A program made the translations under genes and the position numbers. From positions 22,232-86,231 of the IMG/VR virus record IMGVR_UViG_3300048924_000203: a stretch of 64,000 bases of DNA; one strand, written 5' to 3'. The notes below the pieces were generated by a model that saw only the letters and a list, made by a program, of their open reading frames with translations, had not been told where the DNA came from and made no database searches. Source of the DNA: a virus (lineage: Duplodnaviria > Heunggongvirae > Uroviricota > Caudoviricetes). Positions 2,260-61,817 of this stretch are shown piece by piece. Every line of letters begins with the position of its first letter. Position 1 is the stretch's first letter.

Positions 2260-2312
2260 CCCAACTGCCCGGTCCCGTGCCGGGCCACACGACGGATTGA
2301 AGGAGACAACGA

Positions 2313-10884: not shown

Positions 10885-10911
10885 ACGTCACCCTCGAAGG
10901 AGCAGCCAGCG

Positions 10912-40832: not shown

Positions 40833-41089
40833 CGGCGCGGGACGATCTGGCTGAGCGTGTGCGGACGGGTGTGCTGTCTCCGGAGCAGGCTGCTGCGGTG
40901 CGTGCGTCGCTGGAGGCTTCGGGCGCGAGGATGCGGGCGGCTGCGCAGGCGTTCGCTGAGGCAGCGCGGCCGGGGCTGGTGGAGTTCGAGCAGCGGGTGA
41001 ATGACCTGATGGAGGCGGCGCGGCGGTCGCTGCAGGGCCAGAGTGAACCGATTCCGATCCCCTGGGGTGTTGTGCCGGTTACGGTTTGA
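40829..41089 (+). CDS. hypothetical protein
   Basis: ORF track. Confidence 0.4.
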   Translation: MTARDDLAERVRTGVLSPEQAAAVRASLEASGARMRAAAQAFAEAARPGLVEFEQRVNDLMEAARRSLQGQSEPIPIPWGVVPVTV

Positions 41090-41705
41090 CGGTGTCGTCA
41101 GATCGGCGGCCGGGGTGAATCGGGGAGGTTGGGCATGGCCGAGATTGCGGAGGCGACGGACGCGGCGCGTGAGGCGTTGTTGAGGAGGATCGCGAATCTT
41201 GCGCCGCAGTTGAGTGCTGCTGCGGGTGTGCGGGATTTGGCGCAGGCGTTTGCGTTGACGGTTGGTGCGATGCCGGGTCGGTTGCCGGGTGCGTTGGGTG
41301 AGGTGAAGGTCTCGAATTAGGGCGCTGCTGCCGCTGCTGCGGGCTTGTCGGGTCGGTGGTGGTGATGTCGTCGGCGAGGAGCCAGAGCTGCATCGTCACG
41401 GTGGATTTGTCGTTGCCGCTGCGGGCCTCCAACTCCACTACGGCCAACCATGTTCCGTCGTCGCGTAGCAGCCAGGCTGATTGGTGCGCGGGCATCCAGG
41501 GTTCGAGGTGGAGGCCTCCGGCTTTGGCCCACATGGGGATCTGGTCGCGGCGCAGTGGGCCGCGCGGGAATGCTCGGGCGGTGTTGATCCAGACGGGTCT
41601 GTCGACGTGATGGAGGGTGCGGTAGCCGAGCAACTCGCGAGCCCAGTTGTCGAACATGTGTGCGAGTCTGTCAGGTCTGCGCTGGGTTGACCAGGCCAGG
41701 GCCAA
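41079..41705 (-). CDS. reverse-strand hypothetical protein; C-terminal 90 aa are low-complexity and overlap 41129..41320
   Basis: Long reverse-strand ORF with a plausible globular N-terminal 115 aa. Confidence 0.4.
   Translation of the reverse strand: MALAWSTQRRPDRLAHMFDNWARELLGYRTLHHVDRPVWINTARAFPRGPLRRDQIPMWAKAGGLHLEPWMPAHQSAWLLRDDGTWLAVVELEARSGNDKSTVTMQLWLLADDITTTDPTSPQQRQQRPNSRPSPHPTHPATDPASHQPSTQTPAPNPAHPQQHSTAAQDSRSSSTTPHAPRPSPPQSRPCPTSPIHPGRRSDDTVKP
41129..41320 (+). CDS. hypothetical protein; overlaps a reverse-strand ORF
   Basis: Ribosome binding site GGGGAGG; T/G-ending codons with many TTG. Confidence 0.3.
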   Translation: MGMAEIAEATDAAREALLRRIANLAPQLSAAAGVRDLAQAFALTVGAMPGRLPGALGEVKVSN

Positions 41706-42089: not shown

Positions 42090-42134
42090 AACCTCACGGG
42101 GTATGGCCTTGGAACCTGGTAGGTGCGTAGCGCG

Positions 42135-43700
42135 ATGACTTCGGAAACCGTCTCGTCTGAATCGTCAGGCAACGCGTCTGATCTGATTGCGACCCTGCTG
42201 CATCGGTCTCCGCGGATCGCGATGGCAGCCGCGTCGGCCCAGTTCGCGTGGCCGCTGGTGAAGCGCGCGCACACGAAGGTCAAGGAGCGCCGCACCTACA
42301 CGGTGAAGGTTCCAGCGACCGACGAAATCTACGACGACCTGCACGAATGGGTGTTGGGTCTGCTGCCCACCGATGAGCAGCGCGCGTTGGTGGCGTGGAC
42401 CTCGAAACGCGACGACCTCGGACCCACCGCCGCGTACCCGGGAAGCAGCGGACCGCCGAAGCCCCCGCGAATTCGCCTGCGGTACGACGGTTCTCGCGAG
42501 CAGATGGTCACCATCGGCGGACACCGCATCAAGGTCGTGATCAACGACGGCGAGGCGTACAAGGACGATGGCCGCTGGAAGCCCGCCGAGCTGATGTTCA
42601 CCATGCACTCGCTCGGCGCCCAACAGGCGCTGCTGCAGGAGATGGCTCAGGTGGCCAAGCGGTCACGCGAAGAGAAGCGCCAGCCCGTGTTCCGGATGCT
42701 CGACAAGTGGGGCGACTGGGCCCGCGTCGACGACCTGCCGGTCCGCGACCTGGACAGCGTCATCCTGGCGGACGGACAGCTCGACAGGCTGGTGGCCGAC
42801 GTCGCCGATTTCCTTGAGCGCGAAGGGGAGTACGCGCGCCGCTGCATCCCGTGGCACCGCGGACATCTCTACGAGGGGCCACCGGGGACCGGGAAGACGT
42901 CGGTGGCCCGTGCAATCGCCAGCCACTTCACGATGGACGTTTGGTACCTGCCGCTGGCTGACATCACGAAGGACTGCAACCTGCTGAACGCGATCAGCCG
43001 GATCACGCCGCGCTCGATGCTGCTGCTCGAAGACGTCGACGTGTTCCACGCAGCCACCCAGCGTGACGAGAACGCCGGCGTCACGCTGTCCGGGCTGCTG
43101 AACGCTCTGGATGGCATCGCCACGCCGCACGGTCTGCTCACGGTGCTGACCACGAACACGCCGGAGGTCCTGGACAAGGCGGTGGTTCGACCTGGCCGCG
43201 TGGACCTGGTCGAGCACTTCGGGTTCGCCACCGCTGATCAGGTCGCACGGTTGTTGAGCCGCTGGTACGACTGCCCTGTCCATCCGGCTGCGGTCAGCCC
43301 GATGGACAGTGTTCCGCCGGCTCAGATCGTGGAGGTGTGCAAGCGCAGCGCCACCATCGATGATGCGTGGCGCGAACTCGACAAGCTCAAGGCGAACAGC
43401 ACCAGCGTGATTACTCCGCCCATTGCCGTGGGATTCCGGACCGTAGGAGAACCGGCACAGGACCGTGAATCCTACCGGCAGCTGAGCTTCACATTCCACA
43501 GCAGCCGCCCGTCGGAGTTCCGCGTTCAGCTGTCGGTCGACGGTGTCGAGGCAGAGTCTGATCCGCTTCCCTACGACGCCGACAATGACGCTGCGAACGA
43601 TGCACGGTTACAGGCGATATCCCGTTGGGAAGAGAAAACGGGTCGCGTGTTGCCAGCAGACGCGAGAGCGTGGCTGCCGATCGAGATGGTGGCGTTCTGA
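42135..43700 (+). CDS. AAA+ ATPase of BCS1-like type
   Basis: Walker A GPPGTGKTS; Walker B LLLEDVD; sensor TTN; Arg finger PGRVDL; SGLLNALDGIA block matches the BCS1 signature. Confidence 0.8.
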   Translation: MTSETVSSESSGNASDLIATLLHRSPRIAMAAASAQFAWPLVKRAHTKVKERRTYTVKVPATDEIYDDLHEWVLGLLPTDEQRALVAWTSKRDDLGPTAAYPGSSGPPKPPRIRLRYDGSREQMVTIGGHRIKVVINDGEAYKDDGRWKPAELMFTMHSLGAQQALLQEMAQVAKRSREEKRQPVFRMLDKWGDWARVDDLPVRDLDSVILADGQLDRLVADVADFLEREGEYARRCIPWHRGHLYEGPPGTGKTSVARAIASHFTMDVWYLPLADITKDCNLLNAISRITPRSMLLLEDVDVFHAATQRDENAGVTLSGLLNALDGIATPHGLLTVLTTNTPEVLDKAVVRPGRVDLVEHFGFATADQVARLLSRWYDCPVHPAAVSPMDSVPPAQIVEVCKRSATIDDAWRELDKLKANSTSVITPPIAVGFRTVGEPAQDRESYRQLSFTFHSSRPSEFRVQLSVDGVEAESDPLPYDADNDAANDARLQAISRWEEKTGRVLPADARAWLPIEMVAF

Positions 43701-45017: not shown

Positions 45018-47033
45018 TTGGCTACCGTCCGTCTCGTGACGGCCACCAATCTCCGCGTCGTTCGGCGCCCACGCACCCCGCTCGTCGCCGCACTCACGGC
45101 CGCCTCCGCGCCGGTCACGGACCCCACGAAAATCTTCACCGCCACCACAGGCCGCCACAACGCATGGCAGGACGACGCATGGCGCTACACGAAGTGCATC
45201 CCAGAACTCGGCTACTTCGTCCGCTGGCGCTCCAACGCCTGCGCACAGGTCCGCCTCGTCGCATCCGCCATCGACCCCGACACCGGGCTGCCCACCGGCT
45301 CGATCGACGAGAAGGACACTCAGGGCAAGGAGTTCGTCGAGCTGGTCAAGCAGATCGCCGGCGGGCCGCTTGGCCAGAAGCGGCTGATCAAGCGCGCCGC
45401 CACCTGCCTCACCGTCCCCGGCGAACTGTCCATCTGCATCCTGCAGACCGACGACGGCGAGAAGTGGTACGCGATCTCGAAGAAGCAGATCAAGCCGTCC
45501 CAGCAGAAGTCCGACTCGGTCGCGATCAAGCTGCCCGACGGCACCCTCCACGAGTTCGACAAGGGCAAAGACGCGATGTTCCGCGTCTGGAACGAGGACG
45601 CCGAGGACCCCTCCGAAGCTGACTCACCCGTCCGCGCCTGCCTCGACGCGCTCGGCGAGATCGAGCGCGCCACGAAGAAGATCAAGAACGCCGACCGCTC
45701 CCAGCTGCTGAACAACGGCCTGCTCATGGTCCCGTCGGAAGCATCCCTCCCGGACAACCAGGCACCGACCGCCGCAAGGCAGGAAGGCACTCCCACAGCG
45801 GCACAGTCCAAGCGGGTCGCCCAGTCCCTGCAGCGCATGATCGTCCAGGCCGCAGAAGCCTCCGTACGCGACGAGAACAGCGTCGCCGCGGTACTCCCGA
45901 TGGTCGCCGCCGCACCGGGCGAGCACCTCGGCAAGGTCGTCCACATCGAGTTCTCGAAAGAGGCACAGAAGTCCGCTGTCGAGATCCGCGACAGCGCCAT
46001 CGCCCGCACCGCAACAGGCCTGGACATCACCAAGGAACGCCTCCTCGGCATGGGCGAGAACTCCAACCACTGGACCGCCTACCTGCTGGCCGACGAAGAC
46101 GTGAAGCTGCACGTCAACCCGCCCATGGAAGTGCTCTGCCAGGCCATGTACGAGCACACCTTGTCGAACATGCTCGACGCGAAGGGCATCGACTCGTCCA
46201 AGTACACGCTGTGGTTCGACGCCTCGAACCTCACCAAGGACCCGGACCTCACCGACGAGTTCAAGGACGCGTACCAGTCGGGCACCGTCACCAGCACCTC
46301 GTTCGTCGACGGACTCGGCCTCCCCGAACGCGCCCTCTACGACTTCACCACCGAAGAAGGCAAGGCCCAGTGGGCACGCGACCGCGTCTCCGCCGACCCC
46401 AACCTGCTGCCAATTCTGGGGCAGATGATCCCCGAATTCGCAGGCTACGACTTCGGCACCCCACAACCAGCAGCACCGGGCCAGCCCGTCGACGACTACG
46501 GCAACCCCATCGACACCGGACAGGCATACGACCAGTCCACAGACACGAGCACCGACACGGCGACCACCAACCAGCAGACCAACGGACCTGCCGACGTGCA
46601 AGAACCGCAGACCGAAACCAACGACCCCACCACACCCACGTACAGCGTGGAATCACTGGCACGCGCCCGAGCAGAGACCGTCGCCCTCACAGTCGAAGAA
46701 CTCCTCGCCAACCGCGCACTCGAACTGGCCGCCAAGCGACGAATCCACACCAGCGACCGCGCACTCCACGCACGCCTCCGCCACGTCCCCGCACACGAAC
46801 GAAACCGCCACCTACCACCAGTCACACCAGCCGAAGTCCAACGCCTCATCAGGGGATGGGACGACATCCTCACCCCAGAGTTCGCGACCGCCAGCGGCCT
46901 GAACTACAACCGGCTCCACGCCGCTGTCTCCGCCCGGGTGATCGCTGAGCTCACGGCCGGCCAGGTGAACGCCCACGCCACGAACGGGCCGACGGCCACC
47001 TCATCCACCCCGACGAGCCTTGGAGTGTCCTGA
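45018..47033 (+). CDS. portal protein
   Basis: Size, position, acidic C-terminal tail; typical actinophage portal. Confidence 0.8.
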   Translation: MATVRLVTATNLRVVRRPRTPLVAALTAASAPVTDPTKIFTATTGRHNAWQDDAWRYTKCIPELGYFVRWRSNACAQVRLVASAIDPDTGLPTGSIDEKDTQGKEFVELVKQIAGGPLGQKRLIKRAATCLTVPGELSICILQTDDGEKWYAISKKQIKPSQQKSDSVAIKLPDGTLHEFDKGKDAMFRVWNEDAEDPSEADSPVRACLDALGEIERATKKIKNADRSQLLNNGLLMVPSEASLPDNQAPTAARQEGTPTAAQSKRVAQSLQRMIVQAAEASVRDENSVAAVLPMVAAAPGEHLGKVVHIEFSKEAQKSAVEIRDSAIARTATGLDITKERLLGMGENSNHWTAYLLADEDVKLHVNPPMEVLCQAMYEHTLSNMLDAKGIDSSKYTLWFDASNLTKDPDLTDEFKDAYQSGTVTSTSFVDGLGLPERALYDFTTEEGKAQWARDRVSADPNLLPILGQMIPEFAGYDFGTPQPAAPGQPVDDYGNPIDTGQAYDQSTDTSTDTATTNQQTNGPADVQEPQTETNDPTTPTYSVESLARARAETVALTVEELLANRALELAAKRRIHTSDRALHARLRHVPAHERNRHLPPVTPAEVQRLIRGWDDILTPEFATASGLNYNRLHAAVSARVIAELTAGQVNAHATNGPTATSSTPTSLGVS

Positions 47034-47783: not shown

Positions 47784-47953
47784 TGCTCAGCGACTTCGAC
47801 CTGGCGCGGAAGCTGTGGTGGGCCGCGCACCAGATGAAGCGGCAGTACCGCGACGCCGGCTTCTGCATCGCCCGCCTCTTCTGCACTGAGCGGGGCATCG
47901 ACGCGGATGCCGCCGAGTACGACGTCGTGCACAGCGGATGGGAGCCGTCCTGA
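47783..47953 (+). CDS. hypothetical protein
   Basis: TGATG overlaps at both ends. Confidence 0.4.
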   Translation: MLSDFDLARKLWWAAHQMKRQYRDAGFCIARLFCTERGIDADAAEYDVVHSGWEPS

Positions 47954-50900
47954 TGTGGCCGAAGCCTGGTCAAGGGCTGGACCGCGTGCTGGCTGGTGAA
48001 GCTGCTGTTGAGGGCCTGTACCGGGAGGCGCTGACCCGCTGGTCGCCGGTCGCGATGGCCGCGGTGCTGCCGACGTTCGGCGCCGCCGTCACCGCGGATG
48101 CCGGCTACCCGCAGGACCCGCAGCTGCCCCCGGACCCTGCGGCTGTCGAGCAGGGCAACGGCTGGGTCACCGTCGCCGAGGTCGTGATCGTGGCGGGCGT
48201 GGCGGCGCTGTTCGCCGCCGCGGTGGTGGAGGCGATGGACGGTCTCGGCATCCCTCTGCCCGGCCTGCCGTCACTGAAACGCCAGGAACGTGCCGGAAAC
48301 CCGCAGGTCGCACCCCCCACGAGCAGCGTGACGGTCACCCGCGACCAGGCAAAACAGTCACACCGGGAAGACCCGAACGGTCCGTCTGCGGCCCGACCAG
48401 ACCCGACAACGCCCCCGCATGGTCCGAATCCCCAGGACGATACGACGAAACCGCTGGTCGCACCCGACCTGGATCCGGCAGTCCTGGCGATCGTCAACAC
48501 GGCGGCCGCCGACATGGACGCCGAACAGCTCCACGAGGCGATGCGCATCGTCGACGAAACCCCCGCCCTGGCGCAGGCCCGCGACCAAGTGGTCCAGGTC
48601 CAGCGCGACGCTGCCGCCCGCACGCCGAAGGTCGTCGCTGAGAAGGTCACCGCCGCGATCCGCGACACCGCTCCCGACGAGGCGGGCACGGTCACGATGG
48701 CCGCGCAACGCTCGGCCGCCGCCGACGTGCTGCAACCCGACAGCGACGCCATGGCCCAGATCGCGGCCACCGCCGGCCACCTCTCGGCCGCCGTGCAGAA
48801 CCACGCCTTGCAGGCCGCCGCCGAACTGTCCGAAGACGCGCCGGAACTCGAGAAATTCTGGGCCTGCACCCTCGACGGCCGGACCCGGGACACGCACTGG
48901 GCCGCCGACGGCGCCCGCGTCCCGCTGGCCGCGCCGTTCATCGTCGGCGGCGAACCACTCATGTTCCCCGCCGACCCGGCCGGCTCCCCGGCTGAGACGT
49001 ACGGCTGCCGCTGCCGCATGGGCATCCTCGCCCGCGACGAGTCCCTGCCGACCGAGGTGGACCGGCACACCGAACGCCTCGACGGCCACGACTCTGTCGC
49101 TGTGCACCGCGGGGGCCGCACCCAGGTAGAGGAAATTGAGGCCCGTGCAGCCCGAGGGAACACCCGGGCGCGCGACAACCGTGACGGAGTCGGGACCGTG
49201 GCATCAGCCGCGCCGGATGATCAGGAGTTGACGATGACCAGTGCCATTGCCGCTGAGGACCTGCCTGACGGCCTGACCATCCGGCCGTCCGCCGAGCTCG
49301 CCGCGACCGCCGAGCCGGCCATCCCTGTCGACGGCGCCACCGGGGAAACCGTCGACGGTGAGACGTTCCTGACGTTCACCGACGCACTGTTCGCCGTCAC
49401 CGGCATCCCCACCGACGACCGCCGAATGCTCCTCTCCACCATCGAGCTTGAGTTCCGGGACTTCCCGCTTCCGCTGCAGTGGAAGGAGAAGACCGGCGAC
49501 GGCCACACTGGCTCTGTCACCGTCGGCGTCATCGAGTCCGGCTCGCTGAACGACCAGGGCGAGATCCGCGGCTCCGGCTACATGCTGAACAACAGCAACG
49601 CGTACAAGGCCCTGGAGCTGATCCAGCACGGCGTGAACCGGCCGTCCATCGACATGGCCGACGCCACCGCCGTCCTCGCGTACGACGACGGCACCGAAGT
49701 CACCGAGGAAAACCTCGACCCCACCCAGCGGATCAGCGAGGCGTACACCCGCGGCACCGTGACCGCATGCACGATCGTCGCCATCCCCGCGTTCGGGCAG
49801 ACCCGACTCGCCCTGAACCCCGAACGCGAGTCGCGGGACGTGGCCATGACCGCAGCCGCCCTGACCGCTGCCGCCGCCTACCAGCAGCCGGTCTACGAAC
49901 CCGCCATGTTCGCCGCCGCCGACCCGAACCTGCTCGCGCCGATGCGCCTGTCGATCGACCCCGACACCGGGCACGTGTTCGGATTTATCGCCACCTGGAA
50001 GGACAAGCACCGCTCCGTTGGCCTCGGCCACATCAAGCCGCCCCGCTCGCACACGAACTACGAGCACTTCCACACCAGCCCGGGTGTGCACCTGTCGAAC
50101 GGCACCGTGCTGCCGGTCGGCAGGCTCACGGTCGGCATCGGCCACGCCCCGACCCGCGGCATCTCCTCGGCCGCCGCGCAGGCGCACTACGACAACGTCG
50201 AAGCGTGCTGGGCCATCGGCCGCATCAGCGAGCACCGGCTGGGCATCTACTTCTCCGGCGTCGTCGCACCCTGGGCCAGCCCCGAGAAGGTCCAGATGGG
50301 TCTCGCATCGCCCGTGTCCGGTGACTGGCGCCCGGTCGGACAGGGCAACGCCCTGGAGCTGGTCGCCGTCCTCAGCGTCAACACCCCGGGGTTCCTGTGC
50401 AAGACGGAAACCGACGCGTCGGGCGCCCCGCTGGCGATGGTCGCCTCCCTGACCGTCGCCGACGACGTGCCGGTCATGTCCTACTCGCTGGACGAGCTGA
50501 AAGCGGTGTTCGCGCAGGTGCTGGCCGAGGACCGTGCCGCAAGCAACGCTGACCGCGCGCAGCTGGTGAACAACGGCGTGCTGATGGCCCCGTCGGAGGC
50601 GTCTCTCCCTGGCCCGCAGGCCAGCGCCGACCCGGCCCCCGCCGCCGACGACACGGCCACGGACACCGACCTGGCCCCTGCCGCCGTCGACGCGACCGAC
50701 CGCATGGGCGAACTGATCGCACAGTTCAGCGGCATCGACGCACCGGCCACGCCGGCCACCCCGGCGGAAGCCGCGCCGGTCGAGCTGACCCCGACGGAAC
50801 GCATGGGCTCCCTGATCAGCGAGTTCAACGGCAAGGTCCGCGACGCCGCCTACTGGGGCAAGCCTGTCGGAACCCCGATCACCCCCGGCATGAAGCCGAA

Positions 50901-51366
50901 GGGCCGGAGCGACCACGACCTGAGCAAGGCATCACACAACCAACTGGTCCAGGGTCTGCACGATGCTGAGGTCCACGGTGACCGAGAGGGCGCAGCCGAG
51001 ATCCGCGCCGAAGCAGAGAAGCGGCCTGCGTCGAAGGGCCAGGTATCGAAGCTCGACGCTGACGGCAAGTTGCAGTACGACTACGGCACCGGCGCCAACG
51101 CCAAGTCCAATGAGCGCCGCGACCGCATTCTCATGGCGCGGTCCGCTCCGGAGCGGTTGTCCACGAAGGACCTCAAGACCGCCCGCACGCACATGCTGGC
51201 CGACCAGAAGCGCATGGCAGACCCCCGCTTCAAACTTCCTGGCGAGGACACGTCCGCGCAGGACAAGAAGCGAGCACAGGAACTGGCCGGTGTGGAGCGC
51301 GAGCTTGAGGCGCGCAAGAAGGCTCCCAGCAGCAAGTCGAGTGGCGGTAGCAGCCCAAAAGCCTGA
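47953..51366 (+). CDS. MuF-like minor capsid (head morphogenesis) protein, probably fused to a capsid maturation protease
   Basis: MuF motif CTLDGRTRDTHWAADG...YGCRCRMG; no separate protease gene between portal and capsid. Confidence 0.75.
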   Translation: MWPKPGQGLDRVLAGEAAVEGLYREALTRWSPVAMAAVLPTFGAAVTADAGYPQDPQLPPDPAAVEQGNGWVTVAEVVIVAGVAALFAAAVVEAMDGLGIPLPGLPSLKRQERAGNPQVAPPTSSVTVTRDQAKQSHREDPNGPSAARPDPTTPPHGPNPQDDTTKPLVAPDLDPAVLAIVNTAAADMDAEQLHEAMRIVDETPALAQARDQVVQVQRDAAARTPKVVAEKVTAAIRDTAPDEAGTVTMAAQRSAAADVLQPDSDAMAQIAATAGHLSAAVQNHALQAAAELSEDAPELEKFWACTLDGRTRDTHWAADGARVPLAAPFIVGGEPLMFPADPAGSPAETYGCRCRMGILARDESLPTEVDRHTERLDGHDSVAVHRGGRTQVEEIEARAARGNTRARDNRDGVGTVASAAPDDQELTMTSAIAAEDLPDGLTIRPSAELAATAEPAIPVDGATGETVDGETFLTFTDALFAVTGIPTDDRRMLLSTIELEFRDFPLPLQWKEKTGDGHTGSVTVGVIESGSLNDQGEIRGSGYMLNNSNAYKALELIQHGVNRPSIDMADATAVLAYDDGTEVTEENLDPTQRISEAYTRGTVTACTIVAIPAFGQTRLALNPERESRDVAMTAAALTAAAAYQQPVYEPAMFAAADPNLLAPMRLSIDPDTGHVFGFIATWKDKHRSVGLGHIKPPRSHTNYEHFHTSPGVHLSNGTVLPVGRLTVGIGHAPTRGISSAAAQAHYDNVEACWAIGRISEHRLGIYFSGVVAPWASPEKVQMGLASPVSGDWRPVGQGNALELVAVLSVNTPGFLCKTETDASGAPLAMVASLTVADDVPVMSYSLDELKAVFAQVLAEDRAASNADRAQLVNNGVLMAPSEASLPGPQASADPAPAADDTATDTDLAPAAVDATDRMGELIAQFSGIDAPATPATPAEAAPVELTPTERMGSLISEFNGKVRDAAYWGKPVGTPITPGMKPKGRSDHDLSKASHNQLVQGLHDAEVHGDREGAAEIRAEAEKRPASKGQVSKLDADGKLQYDYGTGANAKSNERRDRILMARSAPERLSTKDLKTARTHMLADQKRMADPRFKLPGEDTSAQDKKRAQELAGVERELEARKKAPSSKSSGGSSPKA

Positions 51367-52985: not shown

Positions 52986-53114
52986 TCGCACTCTAAAACT
53001 ACTTGAAGCGTTTGCACCCCGCATTCCTAGCTTCTGCCGAGTAAGAGAGCTTCCGTCGAGAGCTATGTGCCGGGAAGCGATCTGACCGACGTACAGACCG
53101 CTAGGAGCACTCCC

Positions 53115-55235
53115 GTGAAGTTCACGATGCCCGACGACCTCTCCACCCTCACCGTCGCTGAGCTCGATGCCCTCGCCGCCGAAGCTCAGGCCGAGATCAA
53201 CGTCTACGTGGCCCAGCACGCGGCCAAGAAGACGTTCTCTCCCGAGGACGTGGCCGATTTCGAGTTCCTGTCCAACGCGCACAAGACGATCACCACGGCA
53301 TCCGCCGATCTGGTCGCTGCTGAGCAGGCCGACGCCGCCAAGCTGGCCGACCTGATCGAGCAGAACACGCCGAAGCCTGCCGCCCCGGCAGAGCCCGAGG
53401 CTCCGGCAGCCCCCGAGGCAGCGGCCGGTGAAGACACCGGTGGTGACGCGACCATCGCCAATGGCGCGATCGTCGACACCGCGCCGGCTCCTGCCGCCCC
53501 CGCGGCACCGGCTCCCGCAGCAGCACCCGCAGCCGTCCCGGCACCGGCCGAACCCGCACCAGCGCCGGTCGAGCAGCCGGTAGCAGTCGCCGCCGCAGCT
53601 ACCGCGCCGGTGAACTTCGCCGCCGCGACCACCAGCACCCCGGTGCCCACCCCCACGGACAGCAAGCCTGGCCGTAAGTGGAACCTGCTGCCGTCCGCCG
53701 CGAACTTCGCCGAGCACGAAGGCAAGGGCGTCAGCCTCCGCGAGATCGCCATGGGCATCTCCGAGATCGACCTCGGTAGCGGTCACGGCGTCCGGCAGAC
53801 CGGCACCTTCAACGGCATGGCGAAGCAGGCCATCGCCACCATCGCCCGCCCGCAGGTCACCATGGAGGCGACCAGCGAACAGCAGGTCTACGACTTCCTG
53901 CAGACGCTCGGCAAGGAGATCCCCGGCCACGGCGACGCCACGGCCAATGGTCTCGTCGCTGCAGGTGGTTGGTGCGCCCCGTCGCAGCAGCTGTACGACT
54001 TCTGCGACGTCCCCCCGGCTTCGGGCCTGATCTCGCTGCCGGACTTCCCGTTCGACATGTCCCGCGGCGGCGTCCGCGTCCCCGTCAACCCGGACATCTC
54101 GGCCCTGCTGTCCAAGCTGTGGCACTACACCGAGACCGAGCTGGAGGCCACCAACGGCCAGGGCGACCCGACCGCGGTCAAGCCGATCATCGAACTGCCT
54201 TGCCCGGACGAGTTCATCGAGTGGCGGCTGGAAGCGATCGGCTGGGCCGCGAAGGCCGGCATCCTGCAGAAGTCGGCATGGCCCGAAGCCATCGAGAACG
54301 CGCTGCAGCAGATTCAGGTCGCTCACCAGCACCGTGTCTCGCAGCTGTCGATCGGCAAGATGGTCGCCGGCTCCGGCCCAGTGAAGGTCGTCCCGACCGA
54401 CGCCGTACTCGGCGCCACGTCCGGCGCGCTGAACGCTCTGGACATCAACGCCGTCAACCTGCGCATCGACAAGGGCCTCGCCATCGACGCCACCATCGAA
54501 GGCACCGCCCCGATCTTCTTCCGGAACGTGCTGCGCGCCGACCTCGCACTCCGCGAGGACAAGGAGTTCCTGGAAGTCACCGACGCCGATATCGACCGCT
54601 GGTTCGCGGTCCGGAACATCTACCTGCAGTACGTGGTGGATTGGCAGAAGGGTGGCAGCGGCCAGCCCGGCGATCTGAATGCGCAGCGGTGGCCTGGCCA
54701 CGCGGACGTGATGCTGTACCCGGCCGGCACCTGGTTCCGCCAGCTGGCCAACGTCATCACGCTGGGTGTGCAGTACCCGCTGGAGCTGCTGCAGCTGAAC
54801 CAGTACACGCACATCTTCACCGAGGACTCGTTCCAGGTGGGTCGTCGCTGCAACGAGTCGATCAACGTGCGGCTGCCGTTGTGCGTGAACGGCGCGGTCG
54901 GTGCTCGCGAGCGCATCGAGTGCTCCGGCGTCTACAACGAGACGGTGACCAAGACGGTCACCATCGGTGGCACGGTCCTGCCGACCGGCGGCCTGTTCCC
55001 GGTGTCGTTCTCCAACGGCGGCACCGCGAACATCGCGTGGAACTCGACCAACACGCAGGCCAAGACCGCGCTCGGCGCGATCGACGACGGCCACCCGGCC
55101 AGCGAGTTCACCGTCGCTGGCGGCCCGCTGCCGGGCGCTGCGCTGGCGATCACCTACCCGGCCGAGCTGGGTGACCTGTCGGCCACTGAGGTCGGTCTGA
55201 CCGGTGGTACCGGCACCACGGTCACCGTCGCCTGA
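53115..55235 (+). CDS. major capsid protein (HK97 fold) with N-terminal scaffolding domain and Pro/Ala-rich linker
   Basis: GTG after AGGAGC; coiled-coil N-terminus; GGWCAPS motif; C-terminal Ig-like tail. Confidence 0.8.
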   Translation: MKFTMPDDLSTLTVAELDALAAEAQAEINVYVAQHAAKKTFSPEDVADFEFLSNAHKTITTASADLVAAEQADAAKLADLIEQNTPKPAAPAEPEAPAAPEAAAGEDTGGDATIANGAIVDTAPAPAAPAAPAPAAAPAAVPAPAEPAPAPVEQPVAVAAAATAPVNFAAATTSTPVPTPTDSKPGRKWNLLPSAANFAEHEGKGVSLREIAMGISEIDLGSGHGVRQTGTFNGMAKQAIATIARPQVTMEATSEQQVYDFLQTLGKEIPGHGDATANGLVAAGGWCAPSQQLYDFCDVPPASGLISLPDFPFDMSRGGVRVPVNPDISALLSKLWHYTETELEATNGQGDPTAVKPIIELPCPDEFIEWRLEAIGWAAKAGILQKSAWPEAIENALQQIQVAHQHRVSQLSIGKMVAGSGPVKVVPTDAVLGATSGALNALDINAVNLRIDKGLAIDATIEGTAPIFFRNVLRADLALREDKEFLEVTDADIDRWFAVRNIYLQYVVDWQKGGSGQPGDLNAQRWPGHADVMLYPAGTWFRQLANVITLGVQYPLELLQLNQYTHIFTEDSFQVGRRCNESINVRLPLCVNGAVGARERIECSGVYNETVTKTVTIGGTVLPTGGLFPVSFSNGGTANIAWNSTNTQAKTALGAIDDGHPASEFTVAGGPLPGAALAITYPAELGDLSATEVGLTGGTGTTVTVA

Positions 55236-55327: not shown

Positions 55328-56107
55328 ATGACCGTAGAGACCGCACCAGCACCGTTTTACTTCGATGCACCGCTGGTCAACCCATCGCCGAACGGCCTCT
55401 ACGGCGCCACGGACTGGGCTGACGAGGGGGAGCCGCACCGGTGGCTCACCGCAGGCGTGCAGATCCGTCCGCACAACTACGGCGGCGAGACAGGGTTCGG
55501 CGTGTGGACCGGCACCTGGTGCGCGCCGCCGATCGACCCGGACGAGAAGAAGGACGGCGAGCGTCCGGACATGGACCCGCCGCCGTTCGATCCGATCGTC
55601 GTGTGGGCTGCCGACAAGTGTGACTTGACTCGTGGGTCGCAGACCGAGGTCGTCACACGCGCACAGCAGAATCTGCGGCTGCAGGAGCAGAACGCAGTGG
55701 AGATGGATCTTGCGGTGCGTGCCCTGGCCGACGCGGGCGCACCCACCGCGGTCGCTGACATCACGGCAGCGGTGTCGAAACTCGAAGAGCTGCTGGCGGA
55801 TACGAACACCGTCGGTCAGATTCACGCGGCGGCGGGCTGGGCGGCGTATGCCGCGCAGGCCCAGCTGATCTTCCGTTCCGGATCGACGCTGAAGACCCCG
55901 TTGGGTCACACGTGGGTGTTCGGCGGCGGCTACAAGGCCGGCCTGGGCGCGAAGCTGGTTGCCACGAGCCCGACGTACGGCTGGCGTGGCGAGGCCAAGA
56001 CACGCACGGCGATCCGGCAGGAGTGGAACCGCTTCGTGGCCATTGCCGAACGCCCGGTTGCTGTCGGCTATGAGAAGGCCGTCGGCGCAGTCACCATCAC
56101 CCCGTAG
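55328..56107 (+). CDS. hypothetical capsid-associated protein
   Basis: ORF track; ribosome binding site GGAGG. Confidence 0.55.
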   Translation: MTVETAPAPFYFDAPLVNPSPNGLYGATDWADEGEPHRWLTAGVQIRPHNYGGETGFGVWTGTWCAPPIDPDEKKDGERPDMDPPPFDPIVVWAADKCDLTRGSQTEVVTRAQQNLRLQEQNAVEMDLAVRALADAGAPTAVADITAAVSKLEELLADTNTVGQIHAAAGWAAYAAQAQLIFRSGSTLKTPLGHTWVFGGGYKAGLGAKLVATSPTYGWRGEAKTRTAIRQEWNRFVAIAERPVAVGYEKAVGAVTITP

Positions 56108-56121: not shown

Positions 56122-56724
56122 ATGCCTGAAGGCATTTCCGTCATCATCGACGACGAGGGCTACGCCAACATCACCTTCGAGAACCGGGCACTCCGCGGCC
56201 CGGCCCTCGACCGGCTGATCGAGATCGGCGGGCCCGGCACTGTGGACAAGAGCACCGAGCACGGATACCCCGTGTACCGGGTGCCGGAAGGCAACGCCCG
56301 CGCCGCCGGCCTGCTCGCCACTGCCGGTGTCGCTGACGATCTCCCCACAGCCACGTTGCTGCCAGATGAGAAAGGCGTTCACACGATCCTGAGTCCTCTG
56401 CCGCCCGAACCTGGCACCGTGCTGACCCCGGCGCAGACCGAGCACGTTGAGCGGCTGACCGAACTGCTGGATAACGGCGGCACTTCGCAGACCGAGGAAG
56501 AGAAGGCCGCTGCCGACGGCACCCAGCCCGCACCGGCCGAAGCCCCCGAGACGCCCGCTGCCCCCGAGGTACCGGGCGCTCCTGCCGAGAAGAAGTACCC
56601 GGAAGGCGAGCCCACCACTGAGTGGAAGCTGCTGCAGCTCAAGGCGTACGCCGCCGACCACGGCAAGGACGCAGAGGAACTGCGCACCAAGGCTGAGGTG
56701 CTGGAGCTGATCAACAGCAAGTAG
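56122..56724 (+). CDS. hypothetical protein with Rho-N/SAP-like C-terminus
   Basis: Ribosome binding site GAGGAG; C-terminal WKLLQLKAYAADHG. Confidence 0.55.
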   Translation: MPEGISVIIDDEGYANITFENRALRGPALDRLIEIGGPGTVDKSTEHGYPVYRVPEGNARAAGLLATAGVADDLPTATLLPDEKGVHTILSPLPPEPGTVLTPAQTEHVERLTELLDNGGTSQTEEEKAAADGTQPAPAEAPETPAAPEVPGAPAEKKYPEGEPTTEWKLLQLKAYAADHGKDAEELRTKAEVLELINSK

Positions 56725-56738
56725 GCCCGAGCACACGA

Positions 56739-56769
56739 CAGCCCAGCAGCCGGGGAAGCTGCTGGGCTG
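56739..56769. terminator. bidirectional terminator hairpin CAGCCCAGCAGC-cgggga-GCTGCTGGGCTG
   Basis: Perfect 12-bp stem between convergent genes. Confidence 0.6.
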
Positions 56770-56776
56770 TCGTGCG

Positions 56777-58930
56777 TCAGAGTGCGAGCAGTGACCGGAT
56801 GAGGTCACGATCGACCGCAGCGGCCGGGTCCTGCTGCTGCCGGAACGCTTCCGCGGCGATGATCGCCATGTCCCCGTACGTCAGCCGGTCCACGCCGATC
56901 TCCGCGGCGATCGCATCAGCGATGGTGCCGCCCAACGAGATCGAGTGCCCCGCAGCCTGCGACCCGTTGGAGGTGTCGACCCAGATCGCCTCACGGCTGA
57001 CCAGATCGACCACCATCGGTGCCACCAGAGTGGCGTCGCAGCTGGACTGGAACGCCGTCGCCACCGTGCGTGGATCGAACTGCTGGCCGGCGTCCCCGTT
57101 CGAGCGGAGCATCGCGCCGGCCAGGTTGTCCACCTTCGACAGGTGCTGACCCGAGAACGAGTTCACCGTCATCGCCACGTACCGCGCCTGCGGGTACATC
57201 CGGAGCGCTGCCGCCATGTCGATGTCGATGAACTCTGCGGCGCCGTGCGGCGGCGGGGCGTCCGTGAGGTCACCGGAGAACGTCGCGAAGTGCCGGTTGC
57301 CGCCATATGAGCGGTAGTCAACGGTCGTGACCTGGCGGAAGTCCTTGTCCAGCAACAGTGCTCCGAGGTCGAGATCGACCCGGCCGTGGCCGTTGTGCCA
57401 GTGCACGAACAGCCGCAGCACACCGTGGTCTCCGCCGATCACGAACCGCTCGCCACGCTCGATCGATCGGTCCGTCGACGAAGCGTCCCGGTTGATCGTG
57501 GAGATCGCGGCCGTGTCGGCGGTGCCGATCACGAGCTCGGCCGGCACCAGCTCGCTGCCGAGCCCGCGCAGTCGGGATGCGAGAGCGCCGCGCACTGCGA
57601 GCTGCAGCAGCACCGCGTCCGCCGCCGACACGACGCTCCGCTGCTCCCGCACGAAGTTCGCCCGGCCAGTGACACGCTGCACCGTCGCCCGGCCCGCAGC
57701 GACCGCAGCCAGCCCGTTGTACGCCGCCACGAGCTGTGTGGCCCGGGCCCGCATCCCGTGATGCTCCACCGCGTCACGCAGGTATCCGAGGTCGCCATCC
57801 AGCGTCGCGAGATGCACGAGCCGCGCTACCAGCTGACCCGGCCGCTGCACCAGCAGGTCCACCGCCGTCCCGAGATGCCCGGCCTCGAACGCCGCCTCCA
57901 TCAGCGACGCGAACGTACGGTACTCGATGTTCGAGTGGATGATGTCCAGCGCACGCCGCTCAGCGTCGGTGGACGCGAACTCGAACGGGTGCACGTACCG
58001 CATCACCCGGCGCCACAGGTTGCGGCGCGTGGCCAGGGTGTCCGCACGGTAGCCCTCGGTGAGCTCGCCGAGGCGCTTCACCAGCAGATGCCGGATCGGC
58101 TTCGGCACCGACCGGACCCGGACCGAGCGGTACGCCGAATCAGCCAGTGCCCGCACCGCACGGTCATGCTCCTGGGCGAGGTCCTCGCGGAGCGGCTCGG
58201 TGTACAGCGTCAGGACAGCGCGGAGAAGGTCGTCGGCGCCCTCTGCCGTGTGCAGCGCGGCGGCGGGCACATTCTCGGTGGACCCGCCGGCACTGGCCAG
58301 CGCTTCGATCACGGTCTGCCAGTTCTCCCGGTTGCGCACGCCCGACACGTCAACGCCGAAATCGGGCCGCCGCTCTGCTCCGTATGAGATGGCCGCGGTG
58401 ACGAACTCGCGGTCGTCGGGGGAGAGTGCGACCGGCCGCCGGATCAGGTCCAGTGCCATGTCGAGCAGCCCGTACCCGTCGGCCACACGGAGGGGCTTCG
58501 ATGACACCAACAGGTCCGCCAACGGCAAGTCCGGCCGGACCTTCACCGACCGGTCCACCATGGCGAACCGGTCAAGCTCCTTGCCCGACGGGTCGAACGC
58601 CACCGACAGGTAGTAGACGATCTGGTCGACGAACAGCTGCAGCGTCGACAAGTCCCGGACCTGCTCCGGAAACCCCGGATACACGGGCAGGTACGTCCGG
58701 TCCGCGCCGGACACCTTCCGCGCCGCGGCCAGGATCGCCCGCATATCCAACTCGGAGAGCCCCTGCAGCTCTGCAGGGTTGGTGAGGTAGCCGAGGTTCA
58801 GCAGCTCGACCGCCACCACGTCTCCGCCGTGCTCGATCGGCTCGTCGCTGGCGTGCAGGCGTGCGGCGATTCCCCGGCGCAGCGCGGACTCAGTGAGCGC
58901 CTGCGAGTGGGTCGTGAGCGTCGTGGTCAT
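56777..58930 (-). CDS. large TerD-domain-containing protein (717 aa)
   Basis: Reverse-strand ORF starting MTTTL after GGAGACA; C-terminal block VHWHNGHGRVDLDLGALLLDKD...FSGDLTDA...EFIDIDM matches the TerD signature. Confidence 0.65.
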   Translation of the reverse strand: MTTTLTTHSQALTESALRRGIAARLHASDEPIEHGGDVVAVELLNLGYLTNPAELQGLSELDMRAILAAARKVSGADRTYLPVYPGFPEQVRDLSTLQLFVDQIVYYLSVAFDPSGKELDRFAMVDRSVKVRPDLPLADLLVSSKPLRVADGYGLLDMALDLIRRPVALSPDDREFVTAAISYGAERRPDFGVDVSGVRNRENWQTVIEALASAGGSTENVPAAALHTAEGADDLLRAVLTLYTEPLREDLAQEHDRAVRALADSAYRSVRVRSVPKPIRHLLVKRLGELTEGYRADTLATRRNLWRRVMRYVHPFEFASTDAERRALDIIHSNIEYRTFASLMEAAFEAGHLGTAVDLLVQRPGQLVARLVHLATLDGDLGYLRDAVEHHGMRARATQLVAAYNGLAAVAAGRATVQRVTGRANFVREQRSVVSAADAVLLQLAVRGALASRLRGLGSELVPAELVIGTADTAAISTINRDASSTDRSIERGERFVIGGDHGVLRLFVHWHNGHGRVDLDLGALLLDKDFRQVTTVDYRSYGGNRHFATFSGDLTDAPPPHGAAEFIDIDMAAALRMYPQARYVAMTVNSFSGQHLSKVDNLAGAMLRSNGDAGQQFDPRTVATAFQSSCDATLVAPMVVDLVSREAIWVDTSNGSQAAGHSISLGGTIADAIAAEIGVDRLTYGDMAIIAAEAFRQQQDPAAAVDRDLIRSLLAL

Positions 58931-59261
58931 GGCGTGTGTCTCCGTTCGTGGAACGTGTGCACACCACGGAGACCGTCGAGCGGAGCAGTGCCTGAACAGG
59001 TTCTGCTCCGCTCGGGGAGTGTGCACGGTGGAAAGGTGTGACGGCTGGGTTCATTAAGAGTGAAGAGCCACCACTATGGCCCCCGTGCAGTAGCAACGGT
59101 AGCAGTCGGGTGCGACGGCACCTCAGCCATTTTCCGGGCGCGCCGACGCGCCGCCGACTGATCCATCCGCACCGGCCTGCTGCCATTTCAGGGCGGATGC
59201 ACCCCGCATTCATAGCGTCAGCCACAACCTTGGACCCCGACGCTATGAGGAGCCGGCCGTC

Positions 59262-60335
59262 ATGGCTATGTACACACTGATCAAGGGCAACCGCCTGCGA
59301 CTCACCAAGGTCAACTCGTGCGGTAAGCCGGTCGCCGGCCCCGCCAACTACCTCGTCACCGACGGCTTCGTCCGTCTCAGCATCGATCCTCAGATGAAGG
59401 AACGTAAGGAGATCGAGCAGGAGAACGCCGAAGGCAAGGTGTGCTTCACCGACACGACGCCCGCGGTACGCAAGTACCACAACGTCAAGTTGGAAATGTG
59501 CAACATCAACACCCACGCGATCACGCTGCTGAACGGCTGGCCGCAGGTCCTGGACTACGCGGATGTGCCGATCGGCTTCGAGGACCTGCCCGACGTTGAC
59601 GGCGACTACGGCGTCATGGTCGAGGTGTGGACCACGGGCCGCTCCGACGAGGACTGCGCGATCCCGCTGACCGACGACGACCTCGCTGACACCGGGTCAG
59701 GCAAGAAGTACGGCTACCTGGCCATCGCCGCGAAGGAATGGGTCCTCGACGGCGGCCTGTCGGTCCAGGCAGACATCTCGACCGTCAACTTCACCGGCAT
59801 CAGCCTCCCGCCGACCGGCTGGGGCCGCGGCCCGTGGAACGTCATGGAGACCGACGCCCTCGGCACCCCGGGTCGTCTGCTGACACCAATGGGCCGCAAC
59901 AAGTCGCACTACCGGTCGTTCCGCACCGGCATCGAGCCGCCCGCCATCACTCCCGGCGACGGCCTGTGCGAGCTGGCGATCGACACGATCTTCACCGCCC
60001 CGGACTTCTACTACGGCGGCACCGCCGGCGCCCCGGCGGCGGATGTCGCTCCGGCGCAGCCGATCTGCGGCGGCAAGAAGTACTCGGTGGTGGTCACCGG
60101 TACCGGCAACTTCAGCCTGAAGGTCGGCACGCCGGACACGGCGCCGATCGCGGTCGGCGCGCTGAAGGGTGCGGTGGAGTCGGCGATCGTTGCCCTGTCC
60201 AACGTCGCCCCGGGCCAGGTGCAGGTGTCCGGTACCGCCGGCAACTACACCGTGACGCTCGACCCGTCGCTGCCGGCGCTGACCGCTGGTGCCACGGTGC
60301 CCACCGGCGGCACCGCGACCGTGACAGCGCTCTGA
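59262..60335 (+). CDS. hypothetical structural protein with C-terminal Ig-like domain
   Basis: ORF track; C-terminal 90 aa resemble the capsid C-terminus. Confidence 0.6.
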   Translation: MAMYTLIKGNRLRLTKVNSCGKPVAGPANYLVTDGFVRLSIDPQMKERKEIEQENAEGKVCFTDTTPAVRKYHNVKLEMCNINTHAITLLNGWPQVLDYADVPIGFEDLPDVDGDYGVMVEVWTTGRSDEDCAIPLTDDDLADTGSGKKYGYLAIAAKEWVLDGGLSVQADISTVNFTGISLPPTGWGRGPWNVMETDALGTPGRLLTPMGRNKSHYRSFRTGIEPPAITPGDGLCELAIDTIFTAPDFYYGGTAGAPAADVAPAQPICGGKKYSVVVTGTGNFSLKVGTPDTAPIAVGALKGAVESAIVALSNVAPGQVQVSGTAGNYTVTLDPSLPALTAGATVPTGGTATVTAL

Positions 60336-60431
60336 CCGGACCTGGAAGTGGTGAAGGTGGCACCTCCCCTGGAGGTGCCACCTCCACAGGCCCGACAACC
60401 TTTCCCGGCAGCTGAGTAGGGGAGTGCGGTC

Positions 60432-61817
60432 ATGGATTTCGTGCCTACGGTCTTTCACGACGATGCACCTCCCGGCGTCTCGGCCAGCGAGCTGGCCAAG
60501 GTCAACGCGGGCGTCGTTGAGGGCATCACTAAAGCTGAGGCGGCGAAGTCGATCGCCGACGCTGCAGCGGTCGCTCCTCAAATGATTGCGGCGACCTGGG
60601 CCGAAACCACCGACAAGCAGGCTGCCCCCGTACGACCGGGCCTTGTAGCTATCGGTGACTCATTCATCGGCCTCACGTACATCACGACTCCGTGGAATGG
60701 GTCCAGCCTGAGCCGTACTGCGGTCTATTACAGCGGTGGGTACCTCGCCACGGCGATGATCTGGACACGTCAGCCGTGCACCTTCATTCCGAAGGGCGTA
60801 TCGGGAGAATCTGCAGCCACCGGGCTGACGCGATTCGACGCTGACGTTGTGGCGAAGCATCCACACGTGGTGTTGATCAACTACGGATCAAACGACATGG
60901 CCCTGAGTCGCACAGCTGCGGATACGTTCGCGGATATGCGGGCCATGTACGCAAAGGCGTGGAGGATTGGGGCGAAAGTCATCGCGACGACGTGCCCGCC
61001 TCGCAACTCGTTCACTTCGACCCAGATGAAAGAAGCCTGCAAGCTCAACACGCTGATGCGGAATTACGCCGCGACCAATCCACAGGACTTTTACCTGGTC
61101 GATCTGTGGCGTGCTCTGGCTGATCCGGCCACCGGAAACTACATCGCGGCCTACACAGCCGATGGTATTCATCCGAACGCCGCTGGTGCATGGCGGCTGG
61201 CCAAGGAGTTCGACAGCGCATTCGGGCGGTTCTTCATGAACCCAACCACCAACCTGGCCCGCTGCAACATCAACGATGACAACCTGCTGGTAAACCCGAT
61301 GTTCATCACCTCAGGCGGCAGCCTCCTGACCGCTGGAATAACTGGCACCGTGGGATCCGGTTGGGCAGCGTTTTCAGACGACGCTGCAACGGTGGTGGCC
61401 AACGTATCGCTAGTCGCTCGCGCCGACGGCCTGGGAAACTGGCAGCAGGTGAATGTCACATCCGATCCGACACCAACGAAGTGCGCTCATTTCCTACAAA
61501 GCATCGCGACAGGATTCGCCGCTGGCGATCTGGTGCAGGCGTGGGTCGAGTTCGAGACCGACTCCGCAGGCTGGACCAACGGATCGGTAGAGATGTTCCT
61601 GATGTGTCAGGACGGGAGCGGGAATCTGCTGCATTTCACTCGAAGCCTCAGCCCCGACACGTCCGTACTTGGGGTTCGCCCAGAGTCAGGGGTGCAGGCC
61701 ACTCCGCCGGTCGTCGTGCCGGCTGGTACCACCCAGATCACGTGCCGACTCAGTAAGGGTGGCACCGGCACCGTGCGATTCGGGCGAGTGTCCATCCGGA
61801 AACTGCCTACGTCGTAG
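60432..61817 (+). CDS. SGNH/GDSL hydrolase with C-terminal beta-sandwich domain
   Basis: GDS block AIGDSF; GSND; DGIHPN; AT-richer codons than neighbours. Confidence 0.75.
   Translation: MDFVPTVFHDDAPPGVSASELAKVNAGVVEGITKAEAAKSIADAAAVAPQMIAATWAETTDKQAAPVRPGLVAIGDSFIGLTYITTPWNGSSLSRTAVYYSGGYLATAMIWTRQPCTFIPKGVSGESAATGLTRFDADVVAKHPHVVLINYGSNDMALSRTAADTFADMRAMYAKAWRIGAKVIATTCPPRNSFTSTQMKEACKLNTLMRNYAATNPQDFYLVDLWRALADPATGNYIAAYTADGIHPNAAGAWRLAKEFDSAFGRFFMNPTTNLARCNINDDNLLVNPMFITSGGSLLTAGITGTVGSGWAAFSDDAATVVANVSLVARADGLGNWQQVNVTSDPTPTKCAHFLQSIATGFAAGDLVQAWVEFETDSAGWTNGSVEMFLMCQDGSGNLLHFTRSLSPDTSVLGVRPESGVQATPPVVVPAGTTQITCRLSKGGTGTVRFGRVSIRKLPTS

Follow-up and report, generated by a model that had tools for sequence, protein, structure and literature searches.

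A candidate Ro60/Y-RNA-like ribonucleoprotein cassette with a TerD-type domain in an Omega-like mycobacteriophage or prophage

The reverse-strand gene and its setting

We analysed a stretch of 64,000 nucleotides (nt) of tailed-phage DNA, positions 22,232 to 86,231 of the IMG/VR record IMGVR_UViG_3300048924_000203 (the window, numbered from its first letter). The host genome is an Omega-like temperate mycobacteriophage or prophage. We focused on a reverse-strand gene for a protein of 717 amino acids (aa) and on the non-coding DNA at both of its ends. The protein combined a divergent TerD domain with an N-terminal domain resembling Ro60 in its predicted fold, and a structured RNA was identified directly upstream by sequence comparison. 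The three may together form a ribonucleoprotein (RNP) similar to that of Ro60 and Y RNA. The main features of the locus were as follows.

56734-56774, both strands: bidirectional terminator-type hairpin, with a perfect 17-bp stem (56734-56750 paired with 56758-56774) and a 7-nt loop
56777-58930, reverse strand: TerD-domain gene with a Ro60-like predicted domain; complete open reading frame (ORF) of 717 aa plus stop, the protein beginning MTTTLTT
58931-59261, both strands: divergent intergenic region, 330 bp, non-coding, common to the reverse-strand gene and the major tail protein gene

The ORF had been proposed in a sequence-only reading of the same DNA, and it was confirmed as complete with an ATG start. 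In the alignment, the N-termini of the homologues shared the same methionine (MTT...) as the ATG at 58930. A longer form starting from GTG at 59026 (749 aa) was considered and ruled out, because two frame-breaking 1-nt indels in the close relative L002 fell between this GTG and the ATG, and because of the homologue N-termini. The ratio of nonsynonymous to synonymous substitution (dN/dS) was 0.29, 0.24 and 0.23 in three pairwise comparisons with relatives. The GC content at the three codon positions was 0.72/0.47/0.88, which agreed with the adjacent structural genes. These two results indicated that 56777-58930 on the reverse strand is a real gene under purifying selection.

The order of the surrounding genes was assigned by PHROG annotation. 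The portal gene (45018-47033) was followed by a MuF/protease fusion (47938-51366), the major head protein (53067-55235) and two conserved genes (55328-56107 and 56122-56724). The reverse-strand gene came next, then the major tail protein (59262-60335), a GDSL lipase and a head-tail adaptor. The two capsid-associated genes of unknown function on one flank belonged to PHROG 779 and 970. The gene had been described as lying inside the head cluster. It does adjoin capsid-associated genes, but its other flank is the major tail protein gene, and this order therefore places it at the head/tail boundary rather than strictly within the head cluster.

The hairpin was located between the convergent stop codons at 56722-56724 (forward) and 56777-56779 (reverse). 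Its folding energy was -44 kcal/mol on one strand (z-score -5.0) and -47 kcal/mol on the other (z-score -7.2). Two compensatory changes were observed among the relatives L002 and L003, namely the insertion of a C/G pair and the replacement of an A-U pair by C-G. It had been reported as a perfect 12-bp bidirectional terminator at 56739-56769. The hairpin itself was real, but the stem was 17 bp long, and no T-run followed it on either strand, so that a scan for T-tract terminators did not call it. Hairpin-type terminators without such a tail are common in mycobacteria.

On the other side of the gene, the 330-bp divergent gap noted earlier was real and non-coding. Its ends were conserved among relatives and its centre was variable. 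A search of the phage collection for near-identical DNA, with the window as query, returned no close relative and a sole match of 121 bp to a Gordonia phage.

If the product were a virion or assembly protein, a location flanked by capsid-associated genes and the major tail gene would be expected. However, the gene runs opposite to the structural genes and has a terminator and promoter region of its own, the cassette also occurs outside structural modules, and the protein matched no structural PHROG. A virion protein was therefore judged very improbable.

A structured RNA upstream of the gene

The 330-bp region, which the sequence-only reading had called a divergent promoter region, is the most valuable part of the locus. 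The following elements were found in it.

59096-59104, reverse strand: candidate extended -10 promoter, TGC-TACCGT, the hexamer ending 7 nt upstream of where pairing in the RNA begins
59022-59089, reverse strand: P1 domain of the RNA, with an outer stem, an 8-bp inner helix GUGGUGGC/GCCGUCAC and a small apical hairpin
58977-59014, reverse strand: P2 hairpin of the leader, variable in sequence and conserved in structure, a possible terminator or attenuator
58938-58973, reverse strand: P3 hairpin GUCUCCGU ... ACGGAGAC, nearly invariant, pairing the Shine-Dalgarno (SD) sequence GGAG about 9 nt before the ATG

Conservation was much stronger in the 165 nt or so before the ATG than in the coding sequence. 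Seven cassettes, which occupied at least four genomic contexts and whose coding sequences had synonymous divergences (dS) of up to 0.74, had invariant blocks of 19-27 nt in common. The z-score of the minimum free energy of the leader was -5.0. In P1, the junctions were conserved as GCCAUA ... ACCUUUCC.

The structure was supported by covariation. RNAalifold gave six pairs with compensatory changes, all in P1 and P2, five of them in P2. When 12 sequences from six lineages were compared, the inner helix of P1 was paired in all 96 cells, and four of its eight pairs were compensatory. The covariation score of this helix was reached by none of 500 shuffles, and slid controls were paired in 30-77% of the cells. 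The outer stem had seven different sequences, all of them fully complementary.

A candidate promoter was recognised from comparative conservation. The element TG(C/T)TAC(C/G)GT was conserved upstream of the RNA among the cassettes, and a TANNNT hexamer, mostly following TGN, ended 5-8 nt upstream of the outer stem in 17 of 17 copies examined. From this spacing, transcription would start at the first paired base. A sigma-70 consensus scan over 55-61 kb found no promoter.

The P1 core was also found on the same strand upstream of homologues with only 36-49% identity (L007, L008, L022 and L023), using a structural regular expression and a covariance model that was quickly calibrated and whose E-values are rough. 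Two tandem copies of P1 were present in L007 and in L023. The copies were located at these positions.

Window 58931-59104, reverse strand: RNA motif
L002 5097-5267 and L004 9832-10006: RNA motif
L007 7635-7775 and 7903-8006: RNA motif, two copies
L008 about 7790-7865, and L022 883-1018: RNA motif
L023 3691-3753 and 3833-3993: RNA motif, two copies

The linkage of RNA and gene was examined across the metagenome collection. An unbiased scan for a loose sequence pattern gave 107 matches in 98 loci. Fifteen matches satisfied the structure. Fourteen of these preceded a homologue of the gene on the same strand and the fifteenth was cut by a contig end, whereas none of the 92 matches lacking the structure had a homologue (Fisher p 1e-16). 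Pattern-based locus searches gave nothing in IMG/VR and one locus in GTDB genomes. The motif was not found near the homologue of phage WXIN or at the RING-bearing locus, both of which are described below. Rfam 15 had no match at E<=1 for the RNA in 56500-59400 or in four other motif loci, and no relevant family was obtained at the gathering threshold over the whole window. By sequence comparison, these results showed that the upstream RNA is a structured RNA absent from Rfam 15 and exclusively linked to this gene family.

The gene started 30-38 nt after a proximal copy and 244-335 nt after a distal or single copy. The distal copies of the tandem pairs were followed by a GC-rich hairpin with a U-rich tail and then by a second promoter-like element. 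Hairpins equivalent to P2, with U-rich tails, also followed the motif in other lineages. The distal tandem copies thus look like stand-alone small-RNA genes.

Alternatively, the RNA might work as a leader of the riboswitch or attenuator type. It would then respond to a small molecule, such as the nucleoside-like ligand that has been suggested for Ter systems, and would control expression of a protein that does not bind RNA. The architecture of a conserved multi-stem P1 with invariant junctions, a variable P2 and an SD-sequestering P3 is riboswitch-like, and the strict linkage to one gene family is consistent with such a leader. However, distal copies with their own -10 element and terminator-like hairpin, followed by a second promoter, are unlike a serial attenuator. 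In addition, no similar riboswitch was found in Rfam, and the best structural match of the protein was an RNA-binding ring. We regarded a purely sensing leader as unlikely, although it could account for the RNA.

Domains of the protein

The protein was divided into three parts.

57551-58930, reverse strand: N-terminal alpha-solenoid of predicted Ro60/TROVE-like fold, aa 1 to about 460, with a low-confidence loop at aa 111-132
56951-57529, reverse strand: divergent TerD-type beta-sandwich domain, aa about 468-660
56780-56950, reverse strand: short C-terminal helical tail, aa 661-717, from secondary structure and alignment, conserved in the RING-less branch

The N-terminal region had been regarded as large and unknown, which did not hold once structure was predicted. 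In two AF2 models, in which aa 78-135 and 416-431 were of low confidence, the best structural match of this domain was Ro60. The first 460 aa or so thus appear to resemble the Ro60/TROVE helical domain at the level of the fold. The C-terminal position that is held by the vWA/MIDAS domain in Ro60 was occupied here by the TerD-type domain.

The TerD assignment had been based on the motifs DLDLGALLLD, FSGDLTDA and EFIDIDM. All three were present. Among 114 homologues, the residues R506, D521, S552, G553, D554, E566, G605 and D652 were invariant, and most of them (D521, S552, G553, D554 and E566) were located in these motifs. The invariant residues mapped onto the TerD motifs DLD, SGD.T and D/E-x-I-x-(I/V)-D. 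In the structure model, the C-terminal domain had the TerD beta-sandwich fold. TerD, TerE, TerZ and the C-terminal domain of TerA from a Klebsiella plasmid ter operon were aligned as the reference, and hhalign of the 114-member family profile against them gave a probability of 96.8% (E 2.8e-10, 133 columns). However, the Pfam TerD model (PF02342) did not detect the domain, either in the whole protein at E<=1 or in the isolated C-terminal domain at E<=10. The same model matched 5 of 63 family members directly, with a best value of 4.1e-7. Because of the profile-profile match and these five members, the motif-based call was right in substance, and the C-terminal domain is a divergent TerD domain.

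The Ca2+-binding loop of TerD, from a nuclear magnetic resonance study, reportedly reads GDN(R/L)TG(E/A)GDGDDE. The segment aligned to it in the phage protein was SGDLTDAPPPHGAAE. GD, T and the final E were kept and were invariant in the family, and the central GDGDD was changed to PPPHGAA. On this alignment, the site for a metal or ligand may not be the same as in canonical TerD. Compared with TerD, TerZ, TerE and TerA (PF02342; PDB 2kxt, 2qz7), the phage domain thus escapes the Pfam model and has a replaced GDGDD. It is also fused to a 460-aa helical domain, and no ter operon surrounds it. TerB, TerC, TerZ/A/E, TelA and vWA (TerF/TerY) partners were absent from the window and from ten other contexts.

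Protein family and the RING finger

Family searches were performed with the whole protein. It matched PHROG 33734, of unknown function, with E 4e-58. The NCBIfam model NF041916 (MXAN_6230/SCO0854 family RING domain-containing protein) was matched over aa 323-693 with E 1.5e-67 and 228.5 bits, a score below the curated cutoff of 600 bits, and the match covered profile positions 372-750 of 842. No Pfam family and none of the PADLOC-DB 2.0 defence models were matched at E<=1. A sequence search of the PDB gave no match, and a profile search gave a single TerD alignment, which was non-significant (E 0.31).

There were 28 close homologues. An exhaustive search with a hidden Markov model yielded 3067 representative clusters, 1459 of them with E<=1e-30, and a second, word-indexed homologue search with the alignment as query added zero proteins. 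Most of the closest 150 representatives were RING-less and about 700 aa long, and a minority were RING forms of about 850-900 aa. Prok-RING_4 was present in 23 of 63 more distant members scanned. The phage protein itself had no match to Prok-RING_4 (PF14447) and contained a single cysteine.

The two forms were compared by alignment. The phage protein and the RING-bearing members aligned end to end, with co-linear helical and TerD-like domains. In the RING-bearing relative P0028, the finger (PF14447, 1e-19) at aa 137-182 was an insertion relative to the phage protein, where its place was taken by the short low-confidence loop at aa 111-132. These comparisons indicated that the protein is a RING-less, mostly phage-borne branch of the MXAN_6230/SCO0854 lineage. 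The co-linear helical and TerD-like domains are common to both. In contrast to that family, the phage protein lacks the RING and a C-terminal extension of about 150 aa, scores far below the family cutoff, is borne by phages and prophages, and has a dedicated upstream RNA.

The combined RING/TROVE-like/TerD architecture has reportedly been described computationally. Burroughs, Iyer and Aravind (2011) are said to have reported a RING followed by helical ROT/TROVE-like repeats and a C-terminal TerD, and the Pfam entry on prokaryotic RING families reportedly mentions a finger fused to ROT/TROVE-like repeats and TerD, which would be consistent with the domains seen here. We could not find an earlier description of the RING-less phage branch, of its association with tRNA arrays or of its dedicated RNA.

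The RING-bearing form was a stand-alone chromosomal gene in the context examined. In L006, a LOR (LURP-one-related, PF04525) gene was directly downstream of a RING-bearing homologue (10741-11241). A RING-less phage homologue also had a faint LOR match a few genes further downstream (L007 12464-13174), which may be coincidence.

The relation between the two forms would also allow a decoy function, in which the RING-less phage copy competes with the putative E3-like RING-bearing protein of actinobacteria for an RNA, ligand or substrate. The co-linear proteins, with a RING precisely excised from or inserted into one loop, fit this proposal, as do the presence of Prok-RING_4 in about a third of the distant relatives and the contrast between chromosomal, stand-alone RING forms and RING-less forms in phage-like contexts. 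However, RING-less forms were the majority of the closest 150 representatives, and there is therefore no need to derive them from host copies. We considered a decoy improbable.

Contexts of the homologues

The antisense placement between a PHROG-970 gene and the major tail gene recurred in L002, L003, L017 and L018. Homologues with 73-77% identity were found in other prophage contexts, in M. abscessus, in Mycolicibacterium conceptionense and on two other contigs. The M. abscessus homologue was near a prophage edge beside host PPE and p450 genes, and its cluster contained 83 member sequences. Each of these prophage contexts had 350-490 nt of non-coding DNA upstream and a convergent gene downstream. 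The recurrence of the upstream gap and the convergent gene in differing contexts indicated that the unit moves as a cassette. As far as sequence comparison goes, the reading of the cassette as a moron transcribed on its own, with a separate promoter region and terminator, was supported. The cassette is similar to the morons of temperate mycobacteriophages (Cluster J organisation, PMC3706429) in antisense insertion, own promoter region and terminator, and mobility among prophage contexts. It differs from them in that no known defence domain is present, and in that homologues are also found co-oriented in early or non-structural regions of lytic phages.

Full-length homologues were identified in several phages. 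In Mycobacterium phage WXIN (Omegavirus), the homologue was located in the non-structural block. Others were present in Rhodococcus phage Weasels2, in Ruegeria phage RpAliso and Rhodobacter phage RcXuper, in a 485-kb uncultured phage and in a faecal phage, and in all of these large lytic phages the homologue lay within tRNA/tmRNA arrays. The tRNA-linked loci were the following.

L005/L016: Weasels2, 77-101 kb
L012: RpAliso, 1.6-10 kb
L013: RcXuper
L014: LR745208
L015: MT835874

In Weasels2, the homologue gp266 was located in an island that spans 77-101 kb of the 135-kb genome, about 16-18% of its length, and that held all ten tRNAs together with RtcB, a Thg1-like tRNA-His guanylyltransferase and a 2'-5' RNA ligase. 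In RpAliso and RcXuper, tRNAs/tmRNA were on one side of the homologue and the RNA-repair nucleotidyltransferase RlaP was on the other. The gene after the RpAliso homologue was assigned to RlaP by PF10127 (3.5e-12). In L023, a Suv3-like DEAD-box RNA helicase (1385-3592) divergently adjoined the homologue and its two RNA-motif copies, and in L007 a 2H phosphoesterase was near the homologue.

These contexts also bear on superinfection exclusion and Ca-dependent stress modulation, the functions suggested earlier for the TerD protein. In such a reading, a lysogen-expressed defence moron of the Ter type would act through a Ca2+-linked stress or envelope response and exclude superinfecting phages. 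A survey of jumbo phages noted standalone TerD in actinobacterial phages and suggested that the Ter components of phages might help them to compete with superinfecting phages (PMC7824862). The TerD fold is real here, the antisense gene has its own promoter region and terminator, and the cassette is mobile among mycobacterial prophages, including the M. abscessus prophage edge. However, no TerB, TerC, TerZ, TelA or vWA partner was found in the contexts examined, no PADLOC model matched the protein, and the central acidic GDGDD of the Ca loop was lost. Moreover, this function would leave the 460-aa Ro60-like domain, the dedicated RNA and the tRNA/RNA-repair islands of lytic phages unexplained. 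None of the tests made here supported superinfection exclusion or Ca-stress modulation, exclusion is weakly supported at most, and a Ter-type defence moron was considered rather improbable.

A possible Ro60/Y-RNA-like ribonucleoprotein

The missing PADLOC match, the location of homologues in tRNA and RNA-repair islands, and the dedicated structured RNA together pointed to RNA biology. We propose that the locus is a Ro60/Y-RNA-like RNP cassette in which TerD replaces vWA, and we gave this reading a probability of about 0.45.

The comparison with Ro60 (Rsr)/TROVE supports this proposal in several respects. An RNA-binding solenoid and a metal-binding domain would form a common two-module plan, which for the phage protein rests on the predicted structure. 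Both proteins have structured RNA genes directly adjacent, sometimes in two copies, and both are linked in phages to RtcB or other RNA-repair genes and to tRNA genes. The Ro60 of Thermus phage phiLo binds the adjacent Y-like RNAs Yrl1 and Yrl2 and attenuates host PNPase (PMC12135203), and ROT/TROVE proteins have been listed among phage RNA-repair components (PMC7824862).

Several results weigh against it. Pfam TROVE (PF05731) was absent in the protein and in all 63 relatives scanned, and Ro60 was not found in the PDB sequence and profile searches. Since no TROVE signal was seen at the sequence level, the similarity was treated as a resemblance of fold and not as family membership. In contrast to Ro60, TROVE sequence homology is not detectable, and TerD stands in place of vWA/MIDAS. 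The RNA was not a Y RNA by Rfam (E<=1). It differs from Y RNA in having no recognised tRNA-like module, and the mycobacterial copy is an mRNA leader. The motif was not found near the tRNA-linked homologues of lytic phages with the searches used here. Neither tRNA nor RNA-repair neighbours were present in the window or in close relatives, and the only tRNA of the window was 39 kb away from the gene. Finally, the RNA could be a metabolite-sensing leader, as described above.

In the RNP proposal, the locus would be a self-contained cassette of promoter, structured RNA, ORF and terminator. The protein would bind the structured RNA encoded directly upstream, which would be its own 5' leader in the mycobacterial cassette and, in other lineages, a separate small-RNA gene too. 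The substrates of the resulting Ro60/Y-RNA-like RNP would be structured RNAs, probably of tRNA-like form, and it might survey them, serve as a scaffold for their repair or shield them from nucleases of the host or of rivals. The pocket of the TerD domain (D521, S552-G553-D554, E566 and D652) might give control by a metal or a small ligand. Bound to P1 of the leader, next to the SD-sequestering P3, the protein may autoregulate its translation. The promoter and the antisense orientation of the gene would uncouple its expression from the late structural operon, and it would probably be expressed from the prophage.

The proposal can be extended to the whole family. The phage locus would then be an unrecognised RNP of the Ro60/Y-RNA type, with a TROVE-like ring joined to TerD and with the P1 motif as its cognate RNA, present in phages as a leader and sometimes as separate small-RNA genes as well. 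It would serve phages and prophages in the management or repair of structured RNAs, or in weakening RNA-targeting defences of the host, and the RING-bearing bacterial relatives would be the cellular counterpart in which the same RNA sensing leads to an E3-like output. This wider form is possible, and we put it forward tentatively.

TerD domains are widespread, and their ligand and mechanism remain unsettled. The biology of bacterial and phage Ro60 has so far been based on one architecture, TROVE plus vWA with Y RNA. The present locus is a compact and portable module with two components, a structured RNA of roughly 70 nt and the 717-aa protein, whose family comprises more than 3000 representative clusters. 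If the pairing of RNA and protein is true, TerD domains would be tied to RNA biology, the RING-bearing family of actinobacteria and myxobacteria would gain a functional handle, and a new RNA family would join the RNA-repair and counter-defence toolkits of phages. In addition, the cassette is common in prophages of Mycobacteroides abscessus (the cluster of 83 sequences) and may affect lysogen physiology in this clinically relevant host.

Other observations on neighbouring genes

The gene had also been described as the only large one on the reverse strand. This is roughly true for products of more than 500 aa with a clear coding signal, but 41079-41705 is also a real reverse-strand gene by its PHROG match. 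A reverse ORF of 534 aa at 39054-40658 was ambiguous, with intermediate GC at the codon positions (0.67/0.57/0.70) and no PHROG match. Between 37.4 and 41 kb, the ORFs overlapping on both strands were equally uninformative as to coding, and the other reverse ORFs checked against PHROG were mostly uninformative.

Several features of the structural module were observed. The portal gene was closely preceded, at 42123-43700, by a gene for a BCS1-like AAA+ ATPase (BCS1_N plus AAA), an unusual component of a packaging or structural module in a phage. The portal-associated MuF/protease-type fusion at 47938-51366 encodes 1142 aa, and its counterpart in L002 (14705-17436) encodes 1516 aa with an intein-splicing domain. 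In the major head protein, a C-terminal stretch of about 90 aa (aa 629-718) matched the C-terminal part of the major-tail-protein PHROG 792, and the head and tail subunits (53067-55235 and 59262-60335) therefore appear to share a domain.

A second strong hairpin was found at 60351-60387, right after the major tail protein gene, with 17-nt arms that were 94% complementary and a 3-nt loop. It is probably a terminator or attenuator for this highly expressed gene. The GDSL-family lipase/esterase gene at 60432-61817, among the structural genes, had a GC content of 0.61 and a third-position GC of 0.71, compared with 0.82-0.91 at the third position of its neighbours. This lower GC suggests a more recent acquisition. 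Two tandem GDSL genes were present at the equivalent place in the relatives L002 and L017.

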